Positions 1 to 16,297 of a stretch of 16,297 bases of DNA are shown here, piece after piece (positions within the stretch are counted from its first letter, which is position 1; every line of letters begins with the position of its first letter). The position numbers and the translations under genes were made by a program. This DNA is from a virus (lineage: Duplodnaviria > Heunggongvirae > Uroviricota > Caudoviricetes): the IMG/VR virus record IMGVR_UViG_3300029033_000070, positions 1 to 16,297 of that record; one strand, written 5' to 3'. Below the pieces are notes generated by a model. The model searched no databases and was not told where the DNA came from. It saw only the letters and a list, made by a program, of their open reading frames with translations.

Positions 1-55
1 TTATGAATTCTGGTTAAAATCCATTCGATTATAAAAATGTATATCTCATGCTGTT

Positions 56-81
56 GCCCGAACCCACTCGGGCTTTTTTTT
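56..81 (+). terminator. Intrinsic terminator for a plus-strand transcript entering from the left
   Basis: Hairpin gcccga-acccac-tcgggc (56-73) followed by an 8-T run (74-81) on the + strand. It is convergent with the minus-strand terminator at 86-111. Confidence 0.5.
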
Positions 82-85
82 GCCC

Positions 86-262
86 ACAAGAAAGCCCCTC
101 CGGAGAGGGGCTAAAGCCGCGTATCTGTATCATCATGCACATGGTGCCGGGTGCCTCCCGGTGAGTTCAGCCCGGTGCCACTAAACCCGCGTCATTCTCG
201 TTTTGATAATCAGAGATTATACCGTCACCAGTCGCCCCTCCGCTCAGGGGGATTCACCATGC
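86..262 (-). ncRNA. Structured RNA-like element, copy 1 (candidate ~170-nt sRNA with its own intrinsic terminator)
   Basis: On the minus strand: 5' gcatggtg ... hairpin cccct-gagcgg-agggg ... hairpin ccggg-aggca-cccgg ... caccatg, then terminator gcccctc-tccg-gaggggc + TTTCTT (+ coords 88-111). Blocks are conserved with copy 2 while linkers differ. An extended -10-like TGtTAAAAA lies just upstream (+ 269-277). Short ORFs in the two copies are not conserved. Exact ends not determined. Confidence 0.4.
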
Positions 263-355
263 GAAATTTTTTTAACAAATGCCCAGTCTGACAGGCAACT
301 GTCAACTTACTGAATTGTGAGCAACATAGCATTTAACGGGGAACCTGTTTTCTGC

Positions 356-385
356 AGTAAAAAGGCCCACCGGAGCGGATGGGCC
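356..385 (-). terminator. Intrinsic terminator (minus strand) in the spacer between the two RNA-like elements
   Basis: ggccca-10 nt loop-tgggcc hairpin (364-385) followed on the minus strand by TTTTTAC (A-run 357-363 on +). Confidence 0.5.
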
Positions 386-573
386 TGGAAGGATAGCGGT
401 CATGTGATGCCGGTTTCCCGGTAACTCAGCACCGGTATCTGAGTCAACGTTTTCTCTACTGGGTCATTTCCGATACGCCCTGCCTGCTGACAGGCTTTCA
501 TCACATCTGAAAATATAGCACCCTGACTGATACTGTAGTACCCAAGGTTCCAGAAACTGTGATGTATCCGGCA

Positions 574-745
574 CAGAAAAGCCCCTCCGGAGAGGGGCTG
601 GAGAGTGGCGCTATGTGCCATTGCATGGTGCCGGGTGCCTCCCGGTGAGTTCAGTATCAGCACCTGAACCCGCACAGAAAGGATAAGGGTCGGTGACAAA
701 ACACCAGTTGCTGATTGCCCCTCCGCACAGGGGGATTCACCATGC
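574..745 (-). ncRNA. Structured RNA-like element, copy 2 (diverged paralogue of 86-262)
   Basis: Same block architecture as copy 1: closing helix catggtg/caccatg (+ 738-745 and near 620), hairpin cccct-gtgcgg-agggg, hairpin ccggg-aggca-cccgg, terminator gcccctc-tccg-gaggggc + TTTTCT (+ 575-598). Upstream TGtTAAAAG and TTGACT motifs at the same spacing as in copy 1. Confidence 0.4.
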
Positions 746-913
746 CAGTTTCTTTTAACAAACTCCCCGCAAACCAGACAACAGTCAACCGCCTGAATTG
801 TGAGGTATTTAAAAATTTCAACGGGTAACTGATACCCTGCTAATCGCCTGATGCTTTCTTTTTCAGCAACGGGAAAGCAACAACCACCACACCCACCAGC
901 CGCCCATTTACCA

Positions 914-6108: not shown

Positions 6109-7088
6109 CCCCTGAATCCTGTCGGGATCTGGCTGTAGTCCACGTTGTCGTAACTGGCTTTGAAGTACGGGTCCTCGCGTCTGGCTGCAGATACCGCAGG
6201 AACTTCCCAGGATTCTTCGAAATGACGATCCGGACCAAAGAACGTGACAGCCTGTTTCACAAATTGTGTGCCGCTATTGCCCATCGCAGATACCCAGCCC
6301 GCGTAGCGTTTCACACCTTCCAGCATGGTTTCGGGGTTTACCCCCTCGTTCAAACGGGCTTTCCAGGCTTTGAAGGCTGCTGATTTTGAATTGCCACCAG
6401 CACGTTTGGGATATTCCTGCCAGGCCTGTTCAAATTCCGGTGAATATTCCTGTCGGGCAGAACGCGCTGGCGCAGACGCGTCAGCGGATGCATCAATAGT
6501 GTTTTTAGTCTCCGTTGTAATCTCTGTAGTAATCTCTGTATTTGTATCAACATTCGGCGTATCCCCTGTTCCGTTATGACGTCGGGGGGTGTTCCGTTTT
6601 AACGTAATAGCTGTATCGCTGATTGCATTATTGCTGTTACTTTCTGGCGAAACAGAAGAAGGTGTGGTGATGGCCGCAATTGCCTGTGGGTTGATCCCGA
6701 CAAACAAAATATTGCTGCATTTCACCCCATCGAGCATTTCCACCGTGCGTAAATCCAGAGTAATAAACCCTGCATCGCGCAGACGCTTCAGCGCATCTGC
6801 GGTTTCCCTTTTCCCGAAACCAAACTGCTCAGCAAACGCCTGGTAGCTTCTTTGCAGTTTGTCGCCCTGAAAACGCTTGCGATATCCCAGCAACGCTCCG
6901 GTGTGCTCATCCCTGACCTCTGTCGGGCGGTACCAGTAAACGATCTCTGAAAGCAGAGCGATAGCCGTCGCATCCGGACGCCCACTGGGTAGTCGAATAT
7001 ATTTCCACCAGGTCGCAGGTGTAACATTGCCGGAAATATTAATTTGACCAATAGCCATAACTTCCGGTGTGGGGGCGTAACGGCTCAT
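6105..7088 (-). CDS. Replication initiator, lambda O-like / replisome organizer
   Basis: N-terminal domain consistent with phage replisome-organizer N-terminus; C-terminal EFEQAWQEYPKRAGGNSKSAAFKAWKARL resembles O/DnaT-type C-termini. Carries an internal 12-bp tandem repeat. ATGA overlap with the upstream ORF. Confidence 0.6.
   Translation of the reverse strand: MSRYAPTPEVMAIGQINISGNVTPATWWKYIRLPSGRPDATAIALLSEIVYWYRPTEVRDEHTGALLGYRKRFQGDKLQRSYQAFAEQFGFGKRETADALKRLRDAGFITLDLRTVEMLDGVKCSNILFVGINPQAIAAITTPSSVSPESNSNNAISDTAITLKRNTPRRHNGTGDTPNVDTNTEITTEITTETKNTIDASADASAPARSARQEYSPEFEQAWQEYPKRAGGNSKSAAFKAWKARLNEGVNPETMLEGVKRYAGWVSAMGNSGTQFVKQAVTFFGPDRHFEESWEVPAVSAARREDPYFKASYDNVDYSQIPTGFRG
6517..6546. 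repeat. Tandem 12-bp direct repeat inside the O-like gene (candidate iterons / ori)
   Basis: gtaatctctgta at 6517-6528 and 6529-6540, then partial tttgta; encodes TEITTEIT in the inter-domain linker. By analogy, lambda ori iterons lie inside O. Confidence 0.3.
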
Positions 7089-7384
7089 ACAACCTCCTTC
7101 CGCAGCATGAGAATTGTGTAGCCACGCGCAGGTTGTAGTCTGGCTTTTGCATCAATAGTAAGCGTTGCAATTTTTCGGATATGAAGATAACCAGCTCTTT
7201 CCAGTGCCAGGGTTTCCCTGAATATCGCTTGCTTAGAACAACAGCAGAAATCAGCAAGCACCTGATGATCAATAACTCTCTCGCCTTCACCGTCTGAAGA
7301 ACCCGACATCAAAACACGCAACATAATCAGGCGCTGAATCGGGTTATCGAAAGCACATCCGCACACAAACTGAAAACAGTTCAC
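7085..7384 (-). CDS. Hypothetical small protein (99 aa; possible HTH)
   Basis: Stop overlaps the O-like ATG (ATGA), which supports translation. Start is GTG 7384 or an internal ATG. No family recognised. Confidence 0.4.
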   Translation of the reverse strand: MNCFQFVCGCAFDNPIQRLIMLRVLMSGSSDGEGERVIDHQVLADFCCCSKQAIFRETLALERAGYLHIRKIATLTIDAKARLQPARGYTILMLRKEVV

Positions 7385-7605
7385 GCCACACCTCCCAGAC
7401 GCTTAAACATTTTTCCGGAGCAAAAGGCTATAAGCGGCATACTGACGCGGTAATTACGGCCCAGCGGTTCACAAATCACCTTCTGACATTCACGGTCAAC
7501 CAGGCTAACACGTAGAACATGCCCTGCAGGCGTGGTGTACCACTGACCAGGACGAGGACAACGGAAAGTCTGATTGGTAAACCGTTTGAAAATATTCCGG
7601 ATCAT
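7381..7605 (-). CDS. Hypothetical small protein (74 aa)
   Basis: ATG at 7605 overlaps the stop of the Rha-domain ORF (ATGA). No family recognised. Confidence 0.4.
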   Translation of the reverse strand: MIRNIFKRFTNQTFRCPRPGQWYTTPAGHVLRVSLVDRECQKVICEPLGRNYRVSMPLIAFCSGKMFKRLGGVA

Positions 7606-8753
7606 TTGCGCCCCCTTACCTCTGAAGGGTTCAGCGACAAATTTATGAGACTGGCCAGTAGCGCCGCGTCGTTGATGCGGTCATACAGACTTACAGCCAG
7701 CGGGGATTCGGCTTTTGCCAACATGGGATAAAGCTGCTGCAGCCAGACCTTGTGGATTACCGACAGGTGGGAGTAAAGCACGCTGGCGTTATCTGCGGCA
7801 TCGCTCAGCGTGGATGGCTTTGAAAGCAGTTTTTCCATCTGGTTAAAGGCATTGATGTATGCCTCTTTGAACCGGGCAGCACGTTTACCCGTGAAACCCA
7901 TAGCAAGAAACGCAAAACCGTCGCGGGTGATTTGGTAACAAGGGAGTTTGCGGCCTGATGCGTCGGTGTATTCACTTAACACAAAATTGTGTTCAGTAAA
8001 TTCAGCGGAACATTCGAGGTTTCTAATTCTATCTAAAACCCGCTCATGCCGTTTAGTAAAGTAATTAGCTACTGCAAGAGATGTGGTGACAACGCGACCA
8101 TTGATAATCGTGATTTCAGGGTGAGATTGGGTTGGGAGAGTAGTCATGGTGACAGCCCCTATGTTGAATTCAATGAACTCACCACCAAGGCTTTCCACGA
8201 CCATATAGGTGGTGAGACGTACAGGGGTGGAAATACCGGTCAACATAGAACCCGGCCCAACCGAAGTTGGCCCTGCACGCCCCACCATAATTTGGGCGTA
8301 ACGATGCTCATGACACGAAAAAACCGCATGAGCGCGGTTGTGCTCTATATTGAATTTCGGGTTTCCACGCCCGGCACCCGCTTTATAAGGTGCCGGAACA
8401 GTGTAACGTCCCGGAATTGCAGAATCAATATGCTGGTGGTCCTTCACACTCAACAAAATCACGCCTGAATTTCCACAAAGGACTAAAGCACTCATGCGGG
8501 TAGTCTTTGCGAAGATAGATAACGCGCTGTGTTTCTGGCTCCCAACGAATAACATGGACATAAAGCCCTCTTCCGTCACGAAACCAGCGGTTAAGTTCCT
8601 GCACAACTCGCCCCCCACAGTCAGGTAAAGTTCTCTGTGGTTACTTACAGCCAGGTGATTTGGTAATCTGCATTCATGCCGTAACAACAGGTGTTCAGCG
8701 ACGCTGACCACCAGCTGTTGCGACAAACGGTTATTTGCCGTTAAACTATTCAT
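7602..8753 (-). CDS. Rha-family phage regulatory protein with ~200-aa N-terminal extension of unknown function
   Basis: Rha signature ITIINGRVVTTSLAVANYFTKRHERVLDRIRNL...YQITRDGFAFLAMGFTGKRAARFKEAYINAFNQME at aa ~210-300. ATG 8753 overlaps the upstream stop (ATGA), supporting the long form; an internal ATG at 8147 with AGGGG upstream would give a conventional ~181-aa Rha protein. Confidence 0.55.
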   Translation of the reverse strand: MNSLTANNRLSQQLVVSVAEHLLLRHECRLPNHLAVSNHRELYLTVGGELCRNLTAGFVTEEGFMSMLFVGSQKHSALSIFAKTTRMSALVLCGNSGVILLSVKDHQHIDSAIPGRYTVPAPYKAGAGRGNPKFNIEHNRAHAVFSCHEHRYAQIMVGRAGPTSVGPGSMLTGISTPVRLTTYMVVESLGGEFIEFNIGAVTMTTLPTQSHPEITIINGRVVTTSLAVANYFTKRHERVLDRIRNLECSAEFTEHNFVLSEYTDASGRKLPCYQITRDGFAFLAMGFTGKRAARFKEAYINAFNQMEKLLSKPSTLSDAADNASVLYSHLSVIHKVWLQQLYPMLAKAESPLAVSLYDRINDAALLASLINLSLNPSEVRGRK

Positions 8754-9307
8754 GCGTTAGTTTCTCCACAACCAGAAGCAATCGACGCCACGACGCCCGG
8801 AGCTGCACACTCGCGGGCGTTACTATTTTCTGGAGCGCAGAAGATTTTGTAGACCAGTGCTGCATGCTCCTGGAGCTTCGAAATTGAAAGATACAGTTCG
8901 TCGTTAATTGCTGTCTTCTCATGCGGTTCCACTACACCGTCTTCGATTGCTGAACGAATCTGTCTGGAATAACCGCCGATCTGTTCAATGACTTCCAGCA
9001 GGCGCTGGTTTATATCGGCGTTCTCTACTGCCTCAATTTCAGGAAGCGATACGAACACCCCACCAGCAGACTGTGCGACAGCATCCGCAATGTAGTGAGT
9101 GCCAGCCGCACGCTGTAAAACCATTGCCCATCCCAGCGGGAAAATCTGATCGCCATCTGCACGAAGGCGGTTGAATAAAGCGTTCTCTGTTACATCCAGC
9201 CAGTCAGCAGCTTCAGCGTAACCCCCAGGCAATGCCGCGATAGTTTTTCTGACAGCTTTCACGTACCACTCAGGTTGTTTTTCCACTTTCCAGTGATGCT
9301 TACCCAC
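8750..9307 (-). CDS. Hypothetical early-operon protein (185 aa), second gene after cro
   Basis: GTG start at 9307 with AGGAGG 6 nt upstream; overlaps the cro 3' end by 8 nt. Positionally analogous to cII/YdaT-type genes, but sequence not assigned. Confidence 0.55.
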   Translation of the reverse strand: MGKHHWKVEKQPEWYVKAVRKTIAALPGGYAEAADWLDVTENALFNRLRADGDQIFPLGWAMVLQRAAGTHYIADAVAQSAGGVFVSLPEIEAVENADINQRLLEVIEQIGGYSRQIRSAIEDGVVEPHEKTAINDELYLSISKLQEHAALVYKIFCAPENSNARECAAPGVVASIASGCGETNA

Positions 9308-9560
9308 GGCTTACCTCCTGTTCCTGTGGTTTAAACCCATTCTGGTTTTGGCTAGATTGAAAACGTGCCGGATAAAGAATCTGCATTTCGCTGATTTCAC
9401 CCTTAAAAAAATTGGCCAGACGTTCTGCAAGATCGATAGATGGAATTTGTTCCAGTCTTTCAATACGACTCAGCGTCGCTGGATTGACCTGAACGCCCGC
9501 AGCAACATGCTGCAAAGTAAATCCGTGCGCCTTACGCACATTCCGTAATGGTGATTGCAT
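9300..9560 (-). CDS. cro: Cro-like HTH (XRE-family) regulator
   Basis: 86 aa; HTH KAHGFTLQHVAAGVQVNPATLSRIERLEQIPSIDLAERLANFF. Divergent from the CI-type repressor; GGAGG SD before the ATG. Confidence 0.8.
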   Translation of the reverse strand: MQSPLRNVRKAHGFTLQHVAAGVQVNPATLSRIERLEQIPSIDLAERLANFFKGEISEMQILYPARFQSSQNQNGFKPQEQEVSRG

Positions 9561-9657
9561 ATAACCTCCACATATTGCGTGATGAGCATATTATTTCACG
9601 CAAATATTTTGCGCAAGTTGATTTGCTTAACGCGCAATAAAGAAATGTAATAAACGC
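9561..9657. promoter_or_regulatory. Immunity-region operator/promoter block (OR-like, PR and PRM)
   Basis: Repeated CGCAA/TTGCGC half-sites: ttgcgtga...tcacgcaa inverted repeat (9574-9604), cgcaaatattttgcg near-palindrome, acgcgcaa. Minus-strand TTGCGC-17-TAATAT (PR-like). Plus-strand TTGCTT-17-TGTAAT ends 6 nt before the cI ATG with no SD, implying a leaderless cI mRNA. Confidence 0.6.
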
Positions 9658-10350
9658 ATGAACATAGGAAATCGAGTCAGACAACTTCGCCAGGCGAAGA
9701 ACATGAAAATCGCCGATCTCGCTGAAGCAATAGGAGTGGATGCGGCGAATATCTCGCGCCTCGAAACAGGTAAGCAGAAACAATTCACTGAACAAGCCCT
9801 GAGTAATATTGCCAGGAGCTTAGGTGTTGATATTGCTGATCTCTTTACCTCAGACCTCAAAAGTAATACTGTATGTAAAAACAGTATTAGTGAGGATGTT
9901 GCGCAGGTGAAGGATGTATTCCGTATTGAAATGCTGGATGTCAGTGCCAGTGCGGGAAATGGCCTTATCCAGGGCGGTGATGTCATTGATGTGATTCATG
10001 CCATTGAATACAGAACTGATAATGCTGTATCGATGTTTGGTGGACGACCAGCAAATCACATTAAAGTTATCAACGTTCGTGGGGACAGTATGTGTCCAAC
10101 CATTGAGCCAGGAGATCTCATCTTCGTTGATATCAGTATCAATCAGTTTGATGGGGATGGTATCTATGTGTTTGGTTTTGATGATAAAATTTATGTCAAA
10201 CGACTGCAAATGATACCTGACAAACTACTGGTAATTTCTGATAACCAGATTTACCGTGAATGGGGAATTACCAGCGAAAATGAACACCGGTTTATGGTCT
10301 TTGGAAAGGTCTTAATCAGCCAGTCACAAACCCTTAAGCGACACAATTAA
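9658..10350 (+). CDS. cI: CI-type prophage repressor, HTH + S24 (LexA-like) self-cleaving peptidase domain
   Basis: N-terminal HTH (IGNRVRQLRQAKNMKIADLAEAIGVDAANISRLETGK); C-terminal GDSMCPTIEPGDLIFVD (catalytic Ser) and VKRL (Lys); an Ala-Gly pair in the linker (SASAGNG). Confidence 0.9.
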   Translation: MNIGNRVRQLRQAKNMKIADLAEAIGVDAANISRLETGKQKQFTEQALSNIARSLGVDIADLFTSDLKSNTVCKNSISEDVAQVKDVFRIEMLDVSASAGNGLIQGGDVIDVIHAIEYRTDNAVSMFGGRPANHIKVINVRGDSMCPTIEPGDLIFVDISINQFDGDGIYVFGFDDKIYVKRLQMIPDKLLVISDNQIYREWGITSENEHRFMVFGKVLISQSQTLKRHN

Positions 10351-10370
10351 CCCTTACCTCCTCATCAATT

Positions 10371-10395
10371 AGCCACCCGAAGGTGGCTTTTCATT
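10371..10395 (+). terminator. Intrinsic terminator after cI
   Basis: agccacc-cgaa-ggtggct hairpin followed by TTTTCATT. Confidence 0.6.
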
Positions 10396-10399
10396 ACTC

Positions 10400-10460
10400 A
10401 TCAAATTGCATATCTCGCAACAAAAATACTTGCATAATGCGCAACTTCATTTTATCTTTC
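10400..10460 (+). promoter_or_regulatory. Candidate PL/OL-like region
   Basis: TTGCAT (10430-10435)-17-TATCTT and an operator-like ttgcataatgcgcaa element sharing the GCGCAA half-site with the OR block. Promoter hexamers are weak; assignment tentative. Confidence 0.3.
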
Positions 10461-10890
10461 TTTCCAGACCAACAAACAAGGTACTAACAAAATTTGGTTG
10501 TAACACGGCGTATGGCACATGCGTCGTTAGCGGTCTGGGGACGTTAAAGGAGACAATCCACTCCTTGCTCGGGCAAACAAACCAGGTAGCCGGAATGTGC
10601 AAGTCAATGATGATGCTGATAAGACGCCTAACCAGCGTGGCGATTCGGTTTGACGCCTGGGAAGAGACCAGGGTGCAACGATGAGGGCATTTATGGAACC
10701 GCGACAAAGTGTGGTGCCGTAACTGGCTAAGTGCTCTCAGTGTTGTGGTGAAGGCGCAGGCTGATGCGCGAAAGACATTGCAGCTATTGCGGAAAAGAGC
10801 TGTTCGGCGGGGCAATTAAACGCCCGTGAGAGTCTGAAATAACCGCAAGCCGGAGATCAGCACCGGTCACCACAACAGCCACTGCTTTGG

Positions 10891-10939
10891 CGGTACCAGT
10901 TTGTACACTTGCTTCCGGCTGGTACCGCTCTTTTTACAA
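10891..10939 (+). terminator. Terminator-like hairpin overlapping a boxA-like motif in the PL leader
   Basis: cggtaccag-19 nt loop-ctggtaccg (10891-10927) followed by ctcTTTTT; the sequence gctctttttacaa (10927-10939) resembles boxA (rrn GCTCTTTAACAA, lambda CGCTCTTA). Confidence 0.4.
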
Positions 10940-11024
10940 AACAGAGAAGAGCATCACCGGACGACGGGCTCATAACCCAATCCATCCGGGCGGCTGCCAC
11001 CGCAGGTGTTCTTCTCTGTTTTGT
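10936..11024 (+). promoter_or_regulatory. Long perfect inverted repeat (15-bp arms, 59-nt loop) in the leader upstream of the first PL-operon gene
   Basis: acaaaacagagaaga (10936-10950) and tcttctctgttttgt (11010-11024) are exact reverse complements, extendable via cacc/ggtg; ends ~50 nt before the YfdP-like ATG. Confidence 0.4.
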
Positions 11025-11072
11025 GGGGAAACCAACCGACCTTGCAGGGTCGATATGATGAGGAGCAGCAAA

Positions 11073-11435
11073 ATGGCTAGCGAACGTAGTACTGATGTGC
11101 AGGCATTTATCGGGGAGCTGGACGGCGGCGTATTTGAAACCAAAATCGGAGCTGTTCTCAGTGAAGTCGCTTCCGGTGTGATGAACACGAAAACCAAAGG
11201 TAAGGTCTCGCTCAACCTGGAAATCGAACCGTTTGATGAGAACCGTGTGAAAATCAAACACAAACTCTCATATGTTCGCCCGACTAACCGCGGGAAAATT
11301 TCCGAAGAAGACACCACCGAAACGCCGATGTATGTCAATCGCGGTGGTCGCCTGACTATTCTGCAGGAAGACCAGGGACAATTACTGACTCTTGCCGGTG
11401 AACCTGACGGAAAACTCCGCGCAGCAGGTCATTAA
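11073..11435 (+). CDS. YfdP-like hypothetical protein (120 aa)
   Basis: ATG 11073 with GAGGAG 8 nt upstream; the track ORF 10887.. is an in-frame upstream extension without SD. The 120-aa size and position before the YfdQ/YfdR-like genes match my recollection of CPS-53 yfdP. Confidence 0.55.
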   Translation: MASERSTDVQAFIGELDGGVFETKIGAVLSEVASGVMNTKTKGKVSLNLEIEPFDENRVKIKHKLSYVRPTNRGKISEEDTTETPMYVNRGGRLTILQEDQGQLLTLAGEPDGKLRAAGH

Positions 11436-11500
11436 TATCGTTCTTAATTAACCGATTATTTATCTCATCACTGAATATCTTTATATAGTGAGGACTTATT

Positions 11501-12325
11501 ATGTCTCAGAACTTAGACGCAACCGCAATTAATCAAATCCATTCCCTTATTTCTGCTCAGGGTGTTAATGAAATTATCAGTAAGATTGGTGCCGATGCTG
11601 TGGCATTGCCTGAGAATTTCCGCATTCATGATCTGGAAAAATTTAATTTAAATCGCTTCCGTTTCCGTGGTGCGCTTTCCACTGCCAGCATCGATGACTT
11701 TACCCGTTATTCTAAAGATCTTGCAGATGAAGGCACCCGCTGCTTTATCGATGCCGATAATATGCGAGCAGTCAGTGTGCTTAACCTGGGTACTATTGAT
11801 GAACCAGGTCACGCAGATAACACCGCCACTCTCAAACTGAAAAAGACAGCACCGTTCTCTGCCCTGTTGTCTGTTAACGGCGAGCGTAACTCCCAGAAGT
11901 CACTGGCAGAATGGATTGAAGACTGGTCCGACTACCTTGTGGGCTTTGATGCTAATGGTGACGCTATTCAGGCAACAAAAGCGGCTGCGGCGGTCCGTAA
12001 AATCACGATTGAAGCAAACCAGACCGCTGATTTTGAAGATAATGACTTCAGCGGCAAACGCTCCCTGATGGAGTCTGTCGAAGCGAAGACCAAAGATATT
12101 ATGCCAGTGGCATTTGAATTTAAATGCGTTCCGTTTGAAGGTCTGAAAGAACGTCCATTTAAATTACGCCTCAGCATTATCACTGGCGATCGTCCTGTAC
12201 TGGTTCTGCGCATTATTCAGCTGGAAGCAGTGCAGGAAGAAATGGCTAACGAATTTCGTGATCTGCTTGTTGAGAAATTCAAAGACAGCAAAGTAGAAAC
12301 CTTTATTGGTACTTTCACCGCCTGA
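11501..12325 (+). CDS. yfdQ: YfdQ-like protein (DUF2303 family), 274 aa
   Basis: ATG with AGGA SD; 274-aa size and gene order (before the HD-domain YfdR-like gene) match CPS-53 yfdQ as I recall it. Function unknown. Confidence 0.6.
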
Positions 12326-12453
12326 TTTCATTACTGCAAATGCTCCTGCGGGGGCATTTATGGAAACGTAATTAACTCAATAATCGCCGGATGGTGCGGG
12401 ATTCCTTTTACCCGAATTCAGCGCGGTGCAGCGCATATAAAGTGGAGAACGAA

Positions 12454-12990
12454 ATGTCATTTATTAAAACTTTTTCCGGGAAGCATTTTTATTATGACAA
12501 GATAAATAAAGACGACATCGTGATTAACGATATCGCGGTTTCCCTTTCAAATATCTGTCGCTTTGCAGGACATCTTTCACACTTCTACAGTGTCGCCCAG
12601 CATGCGGTGCTTTGCAGCCAGCTGGTGCCGCAGGAATTTGCTTTTGAAGCGTTAATGCATGATGCAACAGAAGCGTATTGCCAGGACATCCCCGCACCAC
12701 TGAAACGACTTCTTCCTGACTATAAACGGATGGAAGAAAAAATAGACGCCGTAATCCGTGAGAAATACGGGTTACCTCCTGTTATGAGCACGCCAGTGAA
12801 ATATGCCGATCTCATCATGCTGGCAACCGAACGCCGCGATCTCGGGCTTGATGATGGCTCTTTCTGGCCAGTACTGGAAGGTATCCCGGCAACAGAAATG
12901 TTCAAAGTTATTCCACTGGCTCCGAGCCATGCCTACGGGATGTTTATGGAGCGCTTTAACGAGTTATCGGAGTTACGCACATGCGCATGA
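12454..12990 (+). CDS. yfdR: HD-domain phosphohydrolase, YfdR/YfbR-like 5'-deoxynucleotidase family
   Basis: H...HD metal-binding motifs (HLSHFYSVAQHAVL; ALMHDATEAY); start ATG 12454 with GGAGAA SD gives 178 aa. The track ORF start at 12391 is an unsupported extension. Confidence 0.7.
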   Translation: MSFIKTFSGKHFYYDKINKDDIVINDIAVSLSNICRFAGHLSHFYSVAQHAVLCSQLVPQEFAFEALMHDATEAYCQDIPAPLKRLLPDYKRMEEKIDAVIREKYGLPPVMSTPVKYADLIMLATERRDLGLDDGSFWPVLEGIPATEMFKVIPLAPSHAYGMFMERFNELSELRTCA

Positions 12991-13592
12991 ATGTTTTCGA
13001 AATGGAAGGGTTTCTTCGCGGGAAATGTGTACCACGAGATCTGAAAGTGAATGAAACAAATGCTGAATATCTGGTGCGTAAATTTGCTGAAGCGGAGGCC
13101 AAGATTTTGGCTCTGTCCGAAGACCAACAGAAAGCGATTGAGTCAATTAAGCAGGCTGATGCAGCTGTTAAGTTGGCACACGAGAAGTTTTCGGCGCTGG
13201 CGGCGGAGAATGCGGGGCTGAAACACGCAATGGCCGTAACTCTTGAGCATGTGTCGGTCACGGATGCAGGGCAGGCTGGTGTTGCTGCAATGATTATCAA
13301 CGATGCCCTGCACCACAGCGAAACTCCAGCCACCGATGCTTTCCTGGCTGAAATTCGTGCGGAAGCACGCAACGAGGGGATTAACTATACCGCAAGCCGT
13401 CTTGCTGCTGCTTTCAATCACGGATTTATCAATAAGTCTTTACGTGAAGTTTTCGACGTTACACGCATGATTCTGTCAGCGAAAGAAGAGTTGGCTAATG
13501 AACCACACCCGATTGATGGCCTGTCCGGTGAATATGCGGAGAAATCCCTAGAAGAATGGGCGGAACAGATTCGCAAAGGAGGCAACCAGTGA
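12981..13592 (+). CDS. Hypothetical Ala/Glu-rich (probably coiled-coil) protein, ~201-203 aa
   Basis: Start overlaps the YfdR-like stop (ATG 12981 with GGAG upstream, or ATG 12987 in an ATGA overlap). No family recognised. Confidence 0.5.
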   Translation: MRMNVFEMEGFLRGKCVPRDLKVNETNAEYLVRKFAEAEAKILALSEDQQKAIESIKQADAAVKLAHEKFSALAAENAGLKHAMAVTLEHVSVTDAGQAGVAAMIINDALHHSETPATDAFLAEIRAEARNEGINYTASRLAAAFNHGFINKSLREVFDVTRMILSAKEELANEPHPIDGLSGEYAEKSLEEWAEQIRKGGNQ

Positions 13593-13813
13593 GCGGAAAA
13601 AGAATGACTAACAGAGAGCTTGTTGATGCCGCGATTAAGCTTGCTGGTGATTTTTATTCAATGATGGGGTACGCGCATCGCCCTGGATTCAAATATTGGG
13701 AATCACCGCATCCGCAAGAGCAACTGGTATTTCAAATGGCCTGCCGTGCTTTTGAGGTTATTCGCGGTTCTGATGTGATGGACGCCGTTGCCGACTTGGA
13801 GGATGAAGAGTGA
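13589..13813 (+). CDS. Hypothetical small protein (74 aa)
   Basis: GTG start in a GTGA overlap with the upstream stop, AAGGAGG 6 nt upstream. The track ORF start at 13556 lacks an SD. Confidence 0.45.
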   Translation: MSGKRMTNRELVDAAIKLAGDFYSMMGYAHRPGFKYWESPHPQEQLVFQMACRAFEVIRGSDVMDAVADLEDEE

Positions 13814-14160
13814 CCCAAATTAACTATCAGGCACTGCGTGAGGCAGCAGTAGCAATTGAAACAGTGGCAACGCCTCAAAAATTGCAGGCGTTTCGGATGA
13901 AGGTCACACCGTCGGTGGTACTGGCGCTGCTGGATGAAATTAAGCGCCTGGAGGACACAAATATTGATGCTATGTGCCGAATTGCAGAACTGGAAGCGAG
14001 GGAAGTTCAATTACCGACTCGCTACGACCTTCGATATGGACACCCGATAAATGCAGATGAGCGACAAGTCATGATACCTAAAGAAAATGGCAGTTGGCTT
14101 TACCTGATTGACCTAGAACACGCATTACGCGTCGCTGACATTCGCATCAAAGGAGAGTGA
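13810..14160 (+). CDS. Hypothetical protein (116 aa), possibly ead/Ea22-like
   Basis: GTGA overlap start with GGAGG upstream; predicted coiled coil (VLALLDEIKRLEDTNIDAMCRIAELEAREV). The Ea22-like assignment is weak and from memory. Confidence 0.45.
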   Translation: MTQINYQALREAAVAIETVATPQKLQAFRMKVTPSVVLALLDEIKRLEDTNIDAMCRIAELEAREVQLPTRYDLRYGHPINADERQVMIPKENGSWLYLIDLEHALRVADIRIKGE

Positions 14161-14161
14161 T

Positions 14162-14677
14162 ATGGCGTTAACACACCACGAACTCTGTCAGATTGCGTAC
14201 AAGTTCCTTAAGCGCAACGGGTTCAAGGTTTGCTTTCATGACCGCTTTGTTGCTGTAACCAGTACCGGAGAACAGCCAGATGCTATGGGATTCAGAAATT
14301 CAGCATCATGCCTGATAGAGGCGAAGTGTTCTCGTGCTGACTTGTTGGCAGATAGAAAAAAGCGTTTCCGTAAAAATCCCTCACTTGGCATGGGCGACTG
14401 GCGATTCTTTATTAGTGAGCCGGAAATTATTTCAGTTGAGGATTTACCTCCCGGCTGGGGATTACTTCACGTTGTTAACGGAAGAGTACGGAAAGTACAT
14501 GGATGGCCCAGGGGTAATTGCTGTTGGGGTAATCCTGACGATAAGCCATTTACTGGGAATAAGCAGGTTGAATGCGATTACATGTTATCTGCATTAAGGC
14601 GCATGGAGTTGAGAGGGCACCTTAATGAAATATATGACGGTGTGATTGTTAATAAGAAAGAAGGAAACGCGGCATGA
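14162..14677 (+). CDS. PD-(D/E)xK nuclease-superfamily protein (Hjc/VRR-NUC-like motif spacing)
   Basis: E7 ... QPD(41) ... IEAK(53-55): EQPDAMGFRNSASCLIEAKCS has the canonical PD-x(n)-ExK layout. AAGGAG SD; start 1 nt after the upstream stop. Confidence 0.5.
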   Translation: MALTHHELCQIAYKFLKRNGFKVCFHDRFVAVTSTGEQPDAMGFRNSASCLIEAKCSRADLLADRKKRFRKNPSLGMGDWRFFISEPEIISVEDLPPGWGLLHVVNGRVRKVHGWPRGNCCWGNPDDKPFTGNKQVECDYMLSALRRMELRGHLNEIYDGVIVNKKEGNAA

Positions 14678-15591
14678 TCACTATTACCAAAGGGCGACTG
14701 CTGACAATCAAGCAGTGGCGCGAAACATACGGACCGGGTAGCAACGTTGTACTGCCAGCAGAAGAAGCGGAAGAACTGGCACGAATTGCTCTGGTATCGC
14801 TGGAAGCAGAGCCGGTGGCAAAGATTATAGCTCATTACCCATTAGGAGTTGACGTAGGCAAACAAAAGTTCGTACAGGCCATTGGAGAGCTTCCTGACTT
14901 TGGCGGATATCTATTTGCCGCCCCGCCAGCGCCGGTAGTGCCGGAAGAAGCAACTCCGGAAAACGTAGAAATGCTCTCTGGCTATGTTTCCACGTACAAA
15001 TTAACCGATAGCGAGCGCGATATTGCTGCCGAAATATGGAACGCCTGCCGCACCGCCATGCTTCAGTCCGGAAACTTTCGGGAAAGCAAGAATTCGTCAA
15101 CCAATAATTTTCGGGAAATCCCGGAAGCGTCAACCAGCTCTCCGGTAACTCCGGCTCTTCTGCCTGGTGGTTTCACCATTGAGGAGGCGAAGGAATTACA
15201 TGAAGACCTGGTACGCAGCCACATAAGCAAGGCCTTAAGTGGCGAAAAGATGAAAAAGAAAGATCGCGATGCTGATTTGCGCTGGATTCATGGCGTTATA
15301 GTTCAGGCAGCGTGGTTTGTAAAAGCATCACTGGAGCAGAATGCACTATCGGGCAACTCTCCGGTAACTCCGGATGGTTGGATAAGCTGTAGTGAGCGAA
15401 TTCCGGACGATAAACAGTATGTTTGGTGTTGGGGTAAGTCTTACGGCTGGACTGAGTGCGATACCTTCGAAGGGTATTACGATTGGTCGAGAAACAAATG
15501 GTGGGCAGTTACTGACGATGGGGAAGAACCGGCATCGAAAGTAACCCACTGGATGCCGCTACCAGAACCGCCGCAGGAGGTGCGCCAATGA
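14674..15591 (+). CDS. Prophage protein with C-terminal DUF551 domain
   Basis: C-terminal WGKSYGWTECDTFEGYYDWSRNKWW...VTHWMPLPEPP is the typical DUF551 ending; ATGA overlap start. Confidence 0.6.
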   Translation: MITITKGRLLTIKQWRETYGPGSNVVLPAEEAEELARIALVSLEAEPVAKIIAHYPLGVDVGKQKFVQAIGELPDFGGYLFAAPPAPVVPEEATPENVEMLSGYVSTYKLTDSERDIAAEIWNACRTAMLQSGNFRESKNSSTNNFREIPEASTSSPVTPALLPGGFTIEEAKELHEDLVRSHISKALSGEKMKKKDRDADLRWIHGVIVQAAWFVKASLEQNALSGNSPVTPDGWISCSERIPDDKQYVWCWGKSYGWTECDTFEGYYDWSRNKWWAVTDDGEEPASKVTHWMPLPEPPQEVRQ

Positions 15592-15671
15592 TCTGGCCTG
15601 AAGCATTTGCAATTACAGGCGTTGCTATGGCTATCGCTTTTTTAGTATATGTTATTTGTCGGTGTGGGTAA
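15588..15671 (+). CDS. Small hydrophobic peptide (27 aa, single predicted TM helix)
   Basis: ATG in an ATGA overlap with the DUF551 stop; AGGAGG 7 nt upstream; MIWPEAFAITGVAMAIAFLVYVICRCG. Confidence 0.35.
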   Translation: MIWPEAFAITGVAMAIAFLVYVICRCG

Positions 15672-15706
15672 AAGCGTTCGCCGGGATTAACACCAAAGGA
15701 GGGAAT

Positions 15707-15811
15707 GTGTCGGATGATATCTCACTGGCAATGGAAGGTGCGCTGGCTGTTATTGCTGTTGTGGGTGTTTACTGCCTGGTTGTGTTTTTGATGGATCGAC
15801 TAGGGAACTGA
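15707..15811 (+). CDS. Small hydrophobic peptide (~34 aa); frame uncertain
   Basis: AAGGAGGG at 15696-15703; GTG 15707 frame gives VSDDISLAMEGALAVIAVVGVYCLVVFLMDRLGN. An alternative frame from ATG 15714 gives a 25-aa Trp/Leu-rich peptide. Confidence 0.25.
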   Translation: MSDDISLAMEGALAVIAVVGVYCLVVFLMDRLGN

Positions 15812-15819
15812 ATTCATTA

Positions 15820-15841
15820 CGATATGGGAATTCCCATATCG
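15820..15841. repeat. Perfect 22-bp palindrome centred on GAATTC
   Basis: cgatatgggaa/ttcccatatcg; no U-tract on either side, so not a typical terminator. Confidence 0.6.
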
Positions 15842-16056
15842 GGTAAAAACGGTTTGCGGTAAAGCGAGAGTTAAGTAGAATTGCTGCGGGTGCTTGAGGC
15901 TGTCTGCCTCGGGCATGCCACCGTAAGGCAGACAGAGAAAAGCCCCAGTTAACATTATGCGTCTTGCAGGACGCTTAACATTAATCTGAGGCCAATTTCA
16001 TGCTAGTCACATGTAGGTTAGCCTCTTACACGCCGAAAGGCAAGGAGAAGCAGGCT

Positions 16057-16212
16057 ATGAAGCAGCAAAAGGCGATGTTAGTCGCCCTGATCGTCATCTG
16101 TATTACCGTCATTGTGACGGCACTGGTAACGAGGAAAGACCTCTGCGAGGTACGAATCCGAACCGGCCAGACGGAGGTCACTGTCTTCACAGCTTACGAA
16201 CCTGAGGAGTAA
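16057..16212 (+). CDS. hokD: Hok-family type I toxin (HokD/RelF-like)
   Basis: MKQQKAMLVALIVICITVIVTALVTRKDLCEVRIRTGQTEVTVFTAYEPEE is near-identical to HokD/RelF as I recall it. AAGGAG 9 nt upstream of ATG 16057; the track ORF from 16000 is an in-frame upstream extension. A 3' hairpin (cccgc-ttcg-gcggg) is cut by the window end. Confidence 0.8.
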   Translation: MKQQKAMLVALIVICITVIVTALVTRKDLCEVRIRTGQTEVTVFTAYEPEE

Positions 16213-16297
16213 GAGACCAGGCGGGGGAGAAATCCCTCGCCACCTCTGATGAGTCAGGCATCCTCAACGCACCCGCACTTAACCCGCTTCGGCGGGG

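Follow-up and report, generated by a model that had tools for sequence, protein, structure and literature searches.

A 16,297-nucleotide (nt) stretch of viral DNA, IMG/VR record IMGVR_UViG_3300029033_000070 (Caudoviricetes; the whole stretch is referred to below as the window), carries on the plus strand of 11073-15591 eight open reading frames (ORFs) with a coding density of 96%. The first three are yfdP, yfdQ and yfdR, known from the CPS-53 prophage of Escherichia coli K-12; the five that follow are designated g4 to g8, and include a predicted nuclease, g7 (Table 1). An earlier note, made from the sequence alone, had described the eight genes as one tightly coupled host-takeover or anti-defence module, a variant of the K-12 yfdQ-yfdR-yfdS-yfdT cluster with undescribed members. 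We consider it highly probable that the region is the early-left (PL-type) operon of a lambdoid prophage of the SfV, mEp460 and CPS-53 type, composed of independently moving cassettes and not an eight-part machine.

Gene array and junctions

Each ORF was found where the earlier note had placed it, and all eight match PHROG families with E values from 4e-35 to 1e-120, which identifies the eight genes as real. Identical copies of YfdP in other records are labelled PF27127:YfdP. The five overlaps that had been listed are all present: ATGCGCATGA at 12981-12990 (10 nt, yfdR/g4, read from the sequence), GTGA at 13589-13592 (g4/g5) and 13810-13813 (g5/g6), and ATGA at 14674-14677 (g7/g8) and 15588-15591 (g8 and a 27-codon ORF); g6 and g7 meet at TGAtATG (14158-14164). 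The broader statement that successive genes overlap or abut is correct from yfdR onward and incorrect for the first two junctions, which are gaps of 65 nt (yfdP-yfdQ) and 128 nt (yfdQ-yfdR). Overlap or abutment is limited to the distal five genes and the 27-codon ORF after g8 and, since the first two junctions are gaps, translational coupling is possible for the distal genes only. Such overlaps are usual in phage operons and in themselves unremarkable.

Shine-Dalgarno-like purine runs precede most of the starts and are weak before g4 and g8. The start of g5 is ambiguous: GTG at 13589, with AAGGAGG 7 nt upstream, would give 74 amino acids (aa), and ATG at 13604, the RefSeq choice, 69 aa; a gene caller predicted 74 aa for the identical gene at another locus (L012). 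The three genes previously counted as small ORFs encode 203, 69-74 and 116 aa, so that g5 and g6 are small and g4 is not. Two minus-strand ORFs overlap the region. One (10857-11261, 134 aa) matches phrog_3651 at 5e-86 but is antisense to the yfdP start and the leader hairpin, and was rejected as probably a repeated mis-annotation in phage genomes; the other (12956-13372, 138 aa) had no match in our searches.

Table 1. Positions of the eight genes and of associated features in the window.
Feature	Position	Strand	Description and evidence
yfdP	11073-11435	+	120 aa; 99.2% identical to K-12 YfdP; phrog_204 at 1e-49
yfdQ	11501-12325	+	274 aa; Pfam DUF2303, 307.5 bits; 98.5% identical to K-12 YfdQ
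yfdR	12454-12990	+	178 aa; putative HD-domain 5'-deoxynucleotidase; 97.8% identical to K-12 YfdR; phrog_318 at 1.7e-109
g4	12981-13592	+	203 aa; YfdS-like head, Ea22-type coiled-coil body and C-terminal domain
g5	13589 or 13604 to 13813	+	74 or 69 aa; acidic tail; phrog_4132 at 3.8e-40
g6	13810-14160	+	116 aa; Ead/Ea22-like; Pfam Ead_Ea22, 33.1 bits; phrog_250 at 4e-35
g7	14162-14677	+	171 aa; PD-(D/E)xK nuclease fold; distant MmcB-like/SPO1766 relative
g8	14674-15591	+	305 aa; variable N-terminal and middle part, C-terminal DUF551
27-codon hydrophobic ORF	15588-15671	+	Overlaps g8 stop by ATGA; GGAGG upstream; weak PHROG match (0.0035); coding uncertain
Second tiny hydrophobic ORF	15656-15811		After g8; RefSeq has a 34-aa protein within it in identical DNA
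CI-like repressor (helix-turn-helix and S24 peptidase)	9658-10350	+	Pfam Peptidase_S24 at 5.9e-19 and helix-turn-helix families; RefSeq equivalent is an XRE family regulator
Intrinsic-terminator-like hairpin	10371-10388	+	Ends repressor transcript; 7-bp stem with 5 GC pairs, then T run (terminator scan)
Two operator-like sites, TTGCATATCTCGCAA and TTGCATAATGCGCAA	10406-10444 (15-mers at 10406-10420 and 10430-10444)	+	Read as OL
Leader	10465-11072	+	About 600 nt between candidate PL and yfdP; no convincing ORF
hok/sok type I toxin-antitoxin locus	15888-16212	+	Downstream of g8; Rfam sok, 117.6 bits

Distribution and separability of the genes

The yfdP-yfdQ-yfdR trio and g7 differ widely in their distribution. 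Of 5426 complete E. coli genomes, 3012 contain the trio, and plasmids account for only 10 of its 3978 places; g7 DNA is present in 928 of these genomes, and plasmids account for 248 of its 1297 places. The assembly collection has 9926 blocks in which the exact 171-aa g7 protein is recorded. The viral loci considered were 80 IMG/VR loci with a 97-100% identical g7, 57 of which have at least 3.3 kb of upstream sequence. Among these 57 loci, yfdR is present in 19 and the full trio in 13. The junctions of g7 itself are far more constant: the stop-n-ATG before it and the ATGA after it are kept in 80/80 viral loci, the following gene starts with a g8-type N-terminus in 60/74, and DUF551 is encoded within 2.5 kb in 35/74. 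In eight sampled genome contexts of an identical g7, an Ead/Ea22 gene ends 1 nt before the g7 ATG in seven, and a gene overlapping the g7 stop follows in all eight.

The exact g7 is found behind yfdPQR, behind quite different early-left genes, in a RecT-bearing phage, on a mobilisable plasmid, and after O/P-type replication genes in nin regions, where DUF551, hok, DUF968, RusA and Q genes follow. A further location is an apparently P1-like plasmid of 97 kb that carries phd and a gene for Pol III theta. Homologues 65-67% identical to g7 are flanked by NinB and NinG in Lonsdalea and by Lar and RusA in Providencia. Because the trio and g7 are distributed differently, and g7 moves with its own junctions into nin regions and onto plasmids, the eight genes are not one unit, and the earlier proposal of a single eight-gene module was not borne out.

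Recombination joints fall within the array. Over 6333-14816 the window and a CP55_Sichuan prophage (E. coli) align gap-free at 99.9% identity, which ends inside g8, at a mosaic joint. E. coli S19-651 has a Qin-like prophage whose nin (early-right) region is 100% identical to positions 14674-16296 of the window. Recombination between prophages could use the shared g7/g8 block as a substrate.

Comparison with related prophages and phages

The DNA of the window is 96.9% identical to that of CPS-53 (KpLE1) of K-12 over 11054-13084, where homology ends. Synteny with K-12 yfdP-yfdQ-yfdR-yfdS-yfdT (b2359-b2363), which the earlier note had put forward for comparison, holds for the order yfdP, yfdQ, yfdR, with proteins 97.8-99.2% identical, and for the 10 nt by which yfdR overlaps the following gene, which shares its first ~35 residues. 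It fails for everything past ~13084, where K-12 has YfdS (120 aa, with a DUF551 tail), YfdT (101 aa) and then torI, and the window has g4 to g8 (203, 69-74, 116, 171 and 305 aa). CPS-53 of K-12 is also without the repressor, operators and leader of the window.

The isolated and viable phage mEp460 (gp35-gp25) has the same plan, with cI, a 98.5%-identical leader, YfdP, DUF2303 and deoxynucleoside monophosphate (dNMP) phosphatase, continuing with small genes, an Ea22-like gene, DUF551, xis and int. It differs in having, at the places of g4, g5 and g7, a 120-aa gene the size of yfdS, two further small genes and one of 63 aa, and in having an exonuclease before xis. By the account of one paper (PMC4776307), Shigella phage SfV has this plan too, its ORFs 29-31 being named as homologues. 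The exo-xis region of lambda and Shiga toxin (Stx) phages has the same position, late in the PL transcript before xis, and encodes the same Ea22 protein architecture, but the window has no lambda exo, bet or gam genes upstream, and no equivalents of orf60a, orf61, orf63, orf73 or ea8.5 were seen. The CP55_Sichuan record covers 93% of the whole window at 99.9% identity and encodes yfdP to g7 identically; it contains an IS421 insertion, its operon continues into DUF4222, xis and int, and the prophage adjoins yecE. To call the members undescribed was therefore an overstatement: all genes belong to PHROG families, mEp460 has the same plan, the SfV homologues have been named, and the cluster was called common in a 2025 paper (PMC12315714).

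The yfdP-yfdQ-yfdR trio

The HD-domain assignment of YfdR is supported by a match to the HD protein of PDB entry 2gz4 at 5.6e-14 by the annotation of phrog_318 as dNMP phosphatase, and by near-identity to K-12 YfdR, which is an HD-domain dNMP phosphatase; against YfbR-like models, its scores were below cutoff in both Pfam (24.3 bits, cutoff 25.9) and NCBIfam (19.9, cutoff 122). No known fold was matched by the predicted model of YfdQ, which had a predicted local distance difference test score (pLDDT) of 79. The YfdQ sequence matched PDB entry 9o7m, "YfdQ Protein", at an E value of 3e-45. The entry, made up of 36 chains of a homologue of 274 aa, is not included in the fold libraries, and a search for a paper describing it found none. 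YfdP had no relative among solved structures.

In K-12, yfdQ and yfdR together with either yfdS or yfdT inhibit initiation at oriC when carried on a multicopy plasmid (Noguchi and Katayama 2016, PMC4776307), in agreement with what the earlier note had stated. K-12 YfdR binds domain I of DnaA via Phe46 and competes moderately with DiaA and DnaB; yfdP is dispensable, and deletion of the cluster has no effect in normal growth (PMC4776307). With protein identities of 97.8-99.2% to K-12, YfdR of the window would be expected to bind DnaA and, with YfdQ and a partner, to inhibit initiation at oriC in the same way. In lambdoid early-left operons the yfdR/yfdQ/yfdP cluster is encountered fairly often, yfdQ and yfdP are without known function, and the cluster was judged unlikely to be a recombination module (2025 Genome Research, PMC12315714). 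We considered YfdP and YfdQ as a hidden recombination module and dropped the idea, the cluster coexisting with complete Rec modules in some phages (PMC12315714).

Ea22-type and DUF551 proteins

BLASTP aligned residues 1-61 of g4 to YfdS at 66% identity, with the likeness mainly in the first ~35 residues. The whole of g4 matches phrog_614 and phrog_14548 end to end (~1e-91); there is no Pfam match, and phrog_368 is common to g4 and g6, which only suggests that g4 belongs to the Ead/Ea22 family. In the case of g6, the threshold of Pfam Ead_Ea22 (PF13935) is passed, with 33.1 bits versus a cutoff of 27. The g5 protein matches the C-terminal end of the longer phrog_4132 proteins, and residues 235-301 of g8 match Pfam DUF551 (PF04448) with 60.2 bits (cutoff 22). 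Between g8 and YfdT, 10 residues only could be aligned, and the match of g8 to the YfdS tail was weak (E 0.017). By BLASTP, g4 to g8 are not YfdS/YfdT orthologues, in agreement with the earlier observation that the genes after yfdR differ in size from YfdS/YfdT of K-12.

A published description of the Ea22 family (PMC10834534) presents its proteins as mosaics in which a variable head and a coiled coil are combined with C-terminal domains that can be exchanged, DUF551 among them. The Ea22-like g6, phrog_368 in g4 and DUF551 in g8 fit this description. The Ea22 proteins of lambda and Stx phages favour lysogeny (PMC10834534), and by analogy g4 and g6 may have a pro-lysogenic role. As a guess, g8 with its DUF551 domain, or g4 with its YfdS head, might supply the partner role for YfdQ and YfdR.

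The PD-(D/E)xK protein g7

No Pfam, NCBIfam or PADLOC model matched g7. The protein belongs to a family of 308 clusters at 90% identity and 3247 cluster representatives at 50% identity (E up to 0.001), with homologues 58-88% identical across the Enterobacterales. The residues E37, D40, E53 and K55 do not vary among 37 homologues with identities down to 58%, nor among 20 more distant members; the S57-R-x-D60 ... D64 ... K67 block is also kept in the 37 homologues, where R58 alone varies, and rarely. An AlphaFold model built from the homologue alignment (pLDDT 86.1, predicted template modelling score 0.81) has the canonical alpha-beta-beta-beta-alpha-beta core, with D40 just before strand 2 (41-45) and E53-A-K55 at the end of strand 3 (48-54). 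Alignment and model together identify g7 as a protein with the PD-(D/E)xK nuclease fold and motif, for which catalysis is predicted, and uphold the nuclease-like member proposed in the earlier note.

A PDB sequence search with g7 alone returned only noise. With a profile of close g7 homologues, 3dnx (SPO1766) was the top match at an E value of only 0.61; a profile of distant family members reached it at 2.1e-5, so that the link is significant with the distant profile only, and hhalign joined the distant-member profile to the g7 profile with 100% probability. We take 3dnx to be a member of PF06319 (MmcB-like). Neither g7 nor its close homologues match PF06319, and 4/10 distant family representatives did so at 14-21 bits, below the cutoff of 22; weak sub-threshold matches to Hjc (PF01870) were obtained for 17/37 close homologues. 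The MmcB protein of Caulobacter has been described as an SOS-regulated PD-(D/E)xK endonuclease that protects against mitomycin C. It is encoded by a chromosomal SOS gene, whereas g7 is phage- and plasmid-borne and has the extra conserved blocks GMGDWRF, GWGLL and KPF-x-NKQ-x-E. Compared with archaeal Hjc, g7 has a greater length, and its C-terminal helical part is distinct. Fold neighbours of the model include restriction enzymes and the CRISPR-associated nucleases Can2 and Card1; in structure g7 comes closest to a repair-type protein family and not to a restriction enzyme. From the MmcB and Hjc affinities, and from the nin-region neighbours NinB, NinG and RusA elsewhere, we tentatively propose that g7 could be a structure- or damage-specific DNA endonuclease acting on replication or recombination intermediates, an assignment that we place just short of even likelihood.

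In the RefSeq annotation produced by the Prokaryotic Genome Annotation Pipeline (PGAP), equivalents of g4, g7 and g8 are "partial" or "frameshifted" pseudogenes even in 100%-identical DNA, and only the first 179 nt of g7 are annotated. As a result, g7, g4 and g8 are effectively missing from RefSeq annotation.

CI-like repressor, probable operators and leader

The region 11073-15591 is identified by its upstream elements as the body of a repressor-controlled PL-type operon, downstream of a CI-like repressor. The motif TTGC-N7-GCAA has three matches in the window (9623, 10406 and 10430), with 0.68 expected, and 10/200 shuffled sequences reached three. Two of the copies lie downstream of the repressor gene and its terminator-like hairpin, and the third, at 9623-9637, lies between the divergent cro-like and cI-like genes; the copies are probably the repressor operators OR (9623) and OL (10406 and 10430). 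A weak candidate for PL is TTGCAT-17-TATCTT at 10430-10458, the promoter assignment being inferred. The placement on the PL side in the earlier note is thus supported by the CI-like repressor, terminator and operator-like sites upstream, and by xis and int downstream in the 99.9%-identical prophage.

The leader between the candidate promoter and yfdP is conserved in mEp460 and in Stx phages, has an RNA fold z-score of -4.5, and contains an inverted repeat with 25-nt arms (10936-10960 and 11000-11024) just before yfdP. No Rfam match and no credible ORF were found in 10350-11100. The leader may function in antitermination or in processing by RNase III. On the plus strand of 10389-16297, the terminator scan found terminator-like sites limited to two weak hairpins, inside yfdQ and yfdR.

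Discussion

The arrangement at 11073-15591 is ordinary phage mosaicism, in which a known trio is joined to shuffled Ea22-like, DUF551 and small genes, rather than a new system of eight genes. After induction or infection, the CI-like repressor would leave the operators at 10406-10444 and allow delayed-early transcription, through the ~600-nt structured leader, yfdP, yfdQ and yfdR, and then the five coupled genes towards hok/sok. In the first cassette (yfdP-yfdQ-yfdR, cassette A), YfdR and YfdQ would damp host initiation via domain I of DnaA. The second (g4 to g8, cassette B) would be the counterpart of the lambda exo-xis or "ea" region, in which the Ea22-type g4 and g6, with their swappable ends, may bias the decision between lysis and lysogeny, and g7 may cut DNA, most likely branched or damaged intermediates.

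Several points weigh against this reading of the operon and its cassettes. The proposed PL was not called by a consensus promoter scan, and the leader showed no gene for an N-like antiterminator, so that read-through of the whole array is assumed only. The DnaA/oriC effect is known only from overexpression in K-12, and the authors of that work allow that the overexpression effect on oriC is a possible artefact (PMC4776307). The K-12 requirement for yfdS or yfdT is not mappable onto g4 or g8 by sequence, their links to YfdS being the first ~35 residues of g4 and the weak DUF551 match only. The 36 chains of 9o7m hint at a large YfdQ assembly, which may change the picture of cassette A. Lastly, g7 adjoins Ea22-like and DUF551 genes far more consistently than recombination genes, and on that account a role tied to its neighbours is as likely as a recombination role.

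That the eight genes nevertheless form one co-adapted and co-translated host-takeover or anti-defence module, a yfdQRST variant whose nuclease works alongside YfdQ and YfdR, seems to us improbable. Their common strand, dense coding and five overlapping or abutting junctions are what such a module would show; the K-12 phenotype needs a gene downstream of yfdR (yfdS or yfdT), the YfdS N-terminus is kept in g4 and DUF551 in g8, and CP55_Sichuan and locus L012 repeat the exact gene order as far as g7. Stop/start overlaps are nonetheless usual in phage operons, and in this array recombination joints fall inside genes. The distributions of trio and g7 are very different, only 13 of 57 suitable viral g7 loci contain the trio, g5, g7 and g8 are found without yfdPQR in nin regions and on plasmids, and in mEp460 the trio is accompanied by another small gene in the place of g7. 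PADLOC gave no known anti-phage defence family at E values up to 0.01 for any of the eight proteins, which leaves the suggested anti-defence role unsupported and also counts against a narrower grouping, in which the Ea22-like gene, g7 and the g8/DUF551-type gene would constitute an undescribed portable three-gene nuclease system for defence or the exclusion of rival phages or plasmids, counter-defence, or control of lysis and lysogeny by cutting DNA. The coiled-coil and DUF551 proteins would then target or restrain the g7 nuclease. Such a system is unlikely, if less so than the full module. It accords with the Ead/Ea22 gene before g7 in 7/8 contexts and the overlapping gene after it in 8/8, with both junction types in 80/80 viral loci, the g8-type N-terminus in 60/74 and DUF551 in 35/74, with the restriction enzymes, Can2 and Card1 among the fold neighbours, and with the occurrence of the block on plasmids, including a P1-like one, as well as in the early-left operons and nin regions of prophages. 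Distant g7 homologues (65-67%), however, lie beside NinB/NinG, RusA or Lar without an Ea22/DUF551 gene, so that the linkage may only reflect recent shared descent of one E. coli segment; moreover, the best structural relative of g7 is a repair-type family, and Ea22 proteins have their own documented role in lysis-lysogeny.

The PGAP labels on the equivalents in CP55_Sichuan, FORC_069, S19-651, DETEC-S792 and the 97-kb plasmid would imply a dying prophage in which g4, g7 and g8 have decayed to pseudogenes. This is extremely unlikely, and we rejected the RefSeq reading because the ORFs are intact in identical DNA, uninterrupted in both the window and CP55_Sichuan. An exact g7 in 9926 assembly blocks, a 3247-representative family with invariant catalytic residues and a confident fold, and the end-to-end PHROG matches of g4 at 1e-91 are also at odds with decay. 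The labels have the appearance of an artefact that arises when mosaic genes are matched to reference proteins unlike them.

For a PL-type operon made of separate cassettes, the operon itself adds little, since CPS-53, SfV and mEp460 are known examples of the type and the first three genes have been the subject of earlier work. The main by-product of the analysis is g7, which represents a large MmcB-like PD-(D/E)xK family in enterobacterial prophages and plasmids for which there is no Pfam, NCBIfam or PADLOC model; that RefSeq routinely labels it a frameshifted pseudogene is worth correcting. A three-gene unit, if true, would have been overlooked partly because RefSeq calls g7, and often its neighbours, pseudogenes. 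The presence of the trio beside quite different downstream genes also provides a natural comparison for whether the K-12 requirement for yfdS or yfdT is specific or generic.

Other features of the window

By gene content, the window is one lambdoid E. coli prophage, extending from the late-promoter region through the early-left operon. Its minus strand encodes DUF968/HNH, KilA-N, RusA, a LexA-like protein, Dam, PerC and a replication protein, and further Rha/Ash with C4 and isrK RNAs, YmfL and a Cro-like helix-turn-helix protein. The window ends at 16297 in hok/sok. In mEp460 and the CP55_Sichuan prophage the operon leads into xis and int, but from ~14816 the window instead has the sequence of a segment that elsewhere belongs to a nin region. 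The Hok ORF (16057-16212) matches phrog_251 at 5e-32 and is named hokD by RefSeq in identical DNA.

At the left end of the window (26-774) are two copies of the STnc100 small RNA (165 and 141 bits, minus strand) and AsxR (63 bits, plus strand), the latter being the Rfam family "Anti stx2 sRNA". The C4 antisense RNA (82 bits) and isrK (62 bits) lie at 8205-8393 on the minus strand, in or next to the Rha/Ash regulatory gene, and constitute a P1/P7-style antisense immunity element inside a lambdoid early-right operon.

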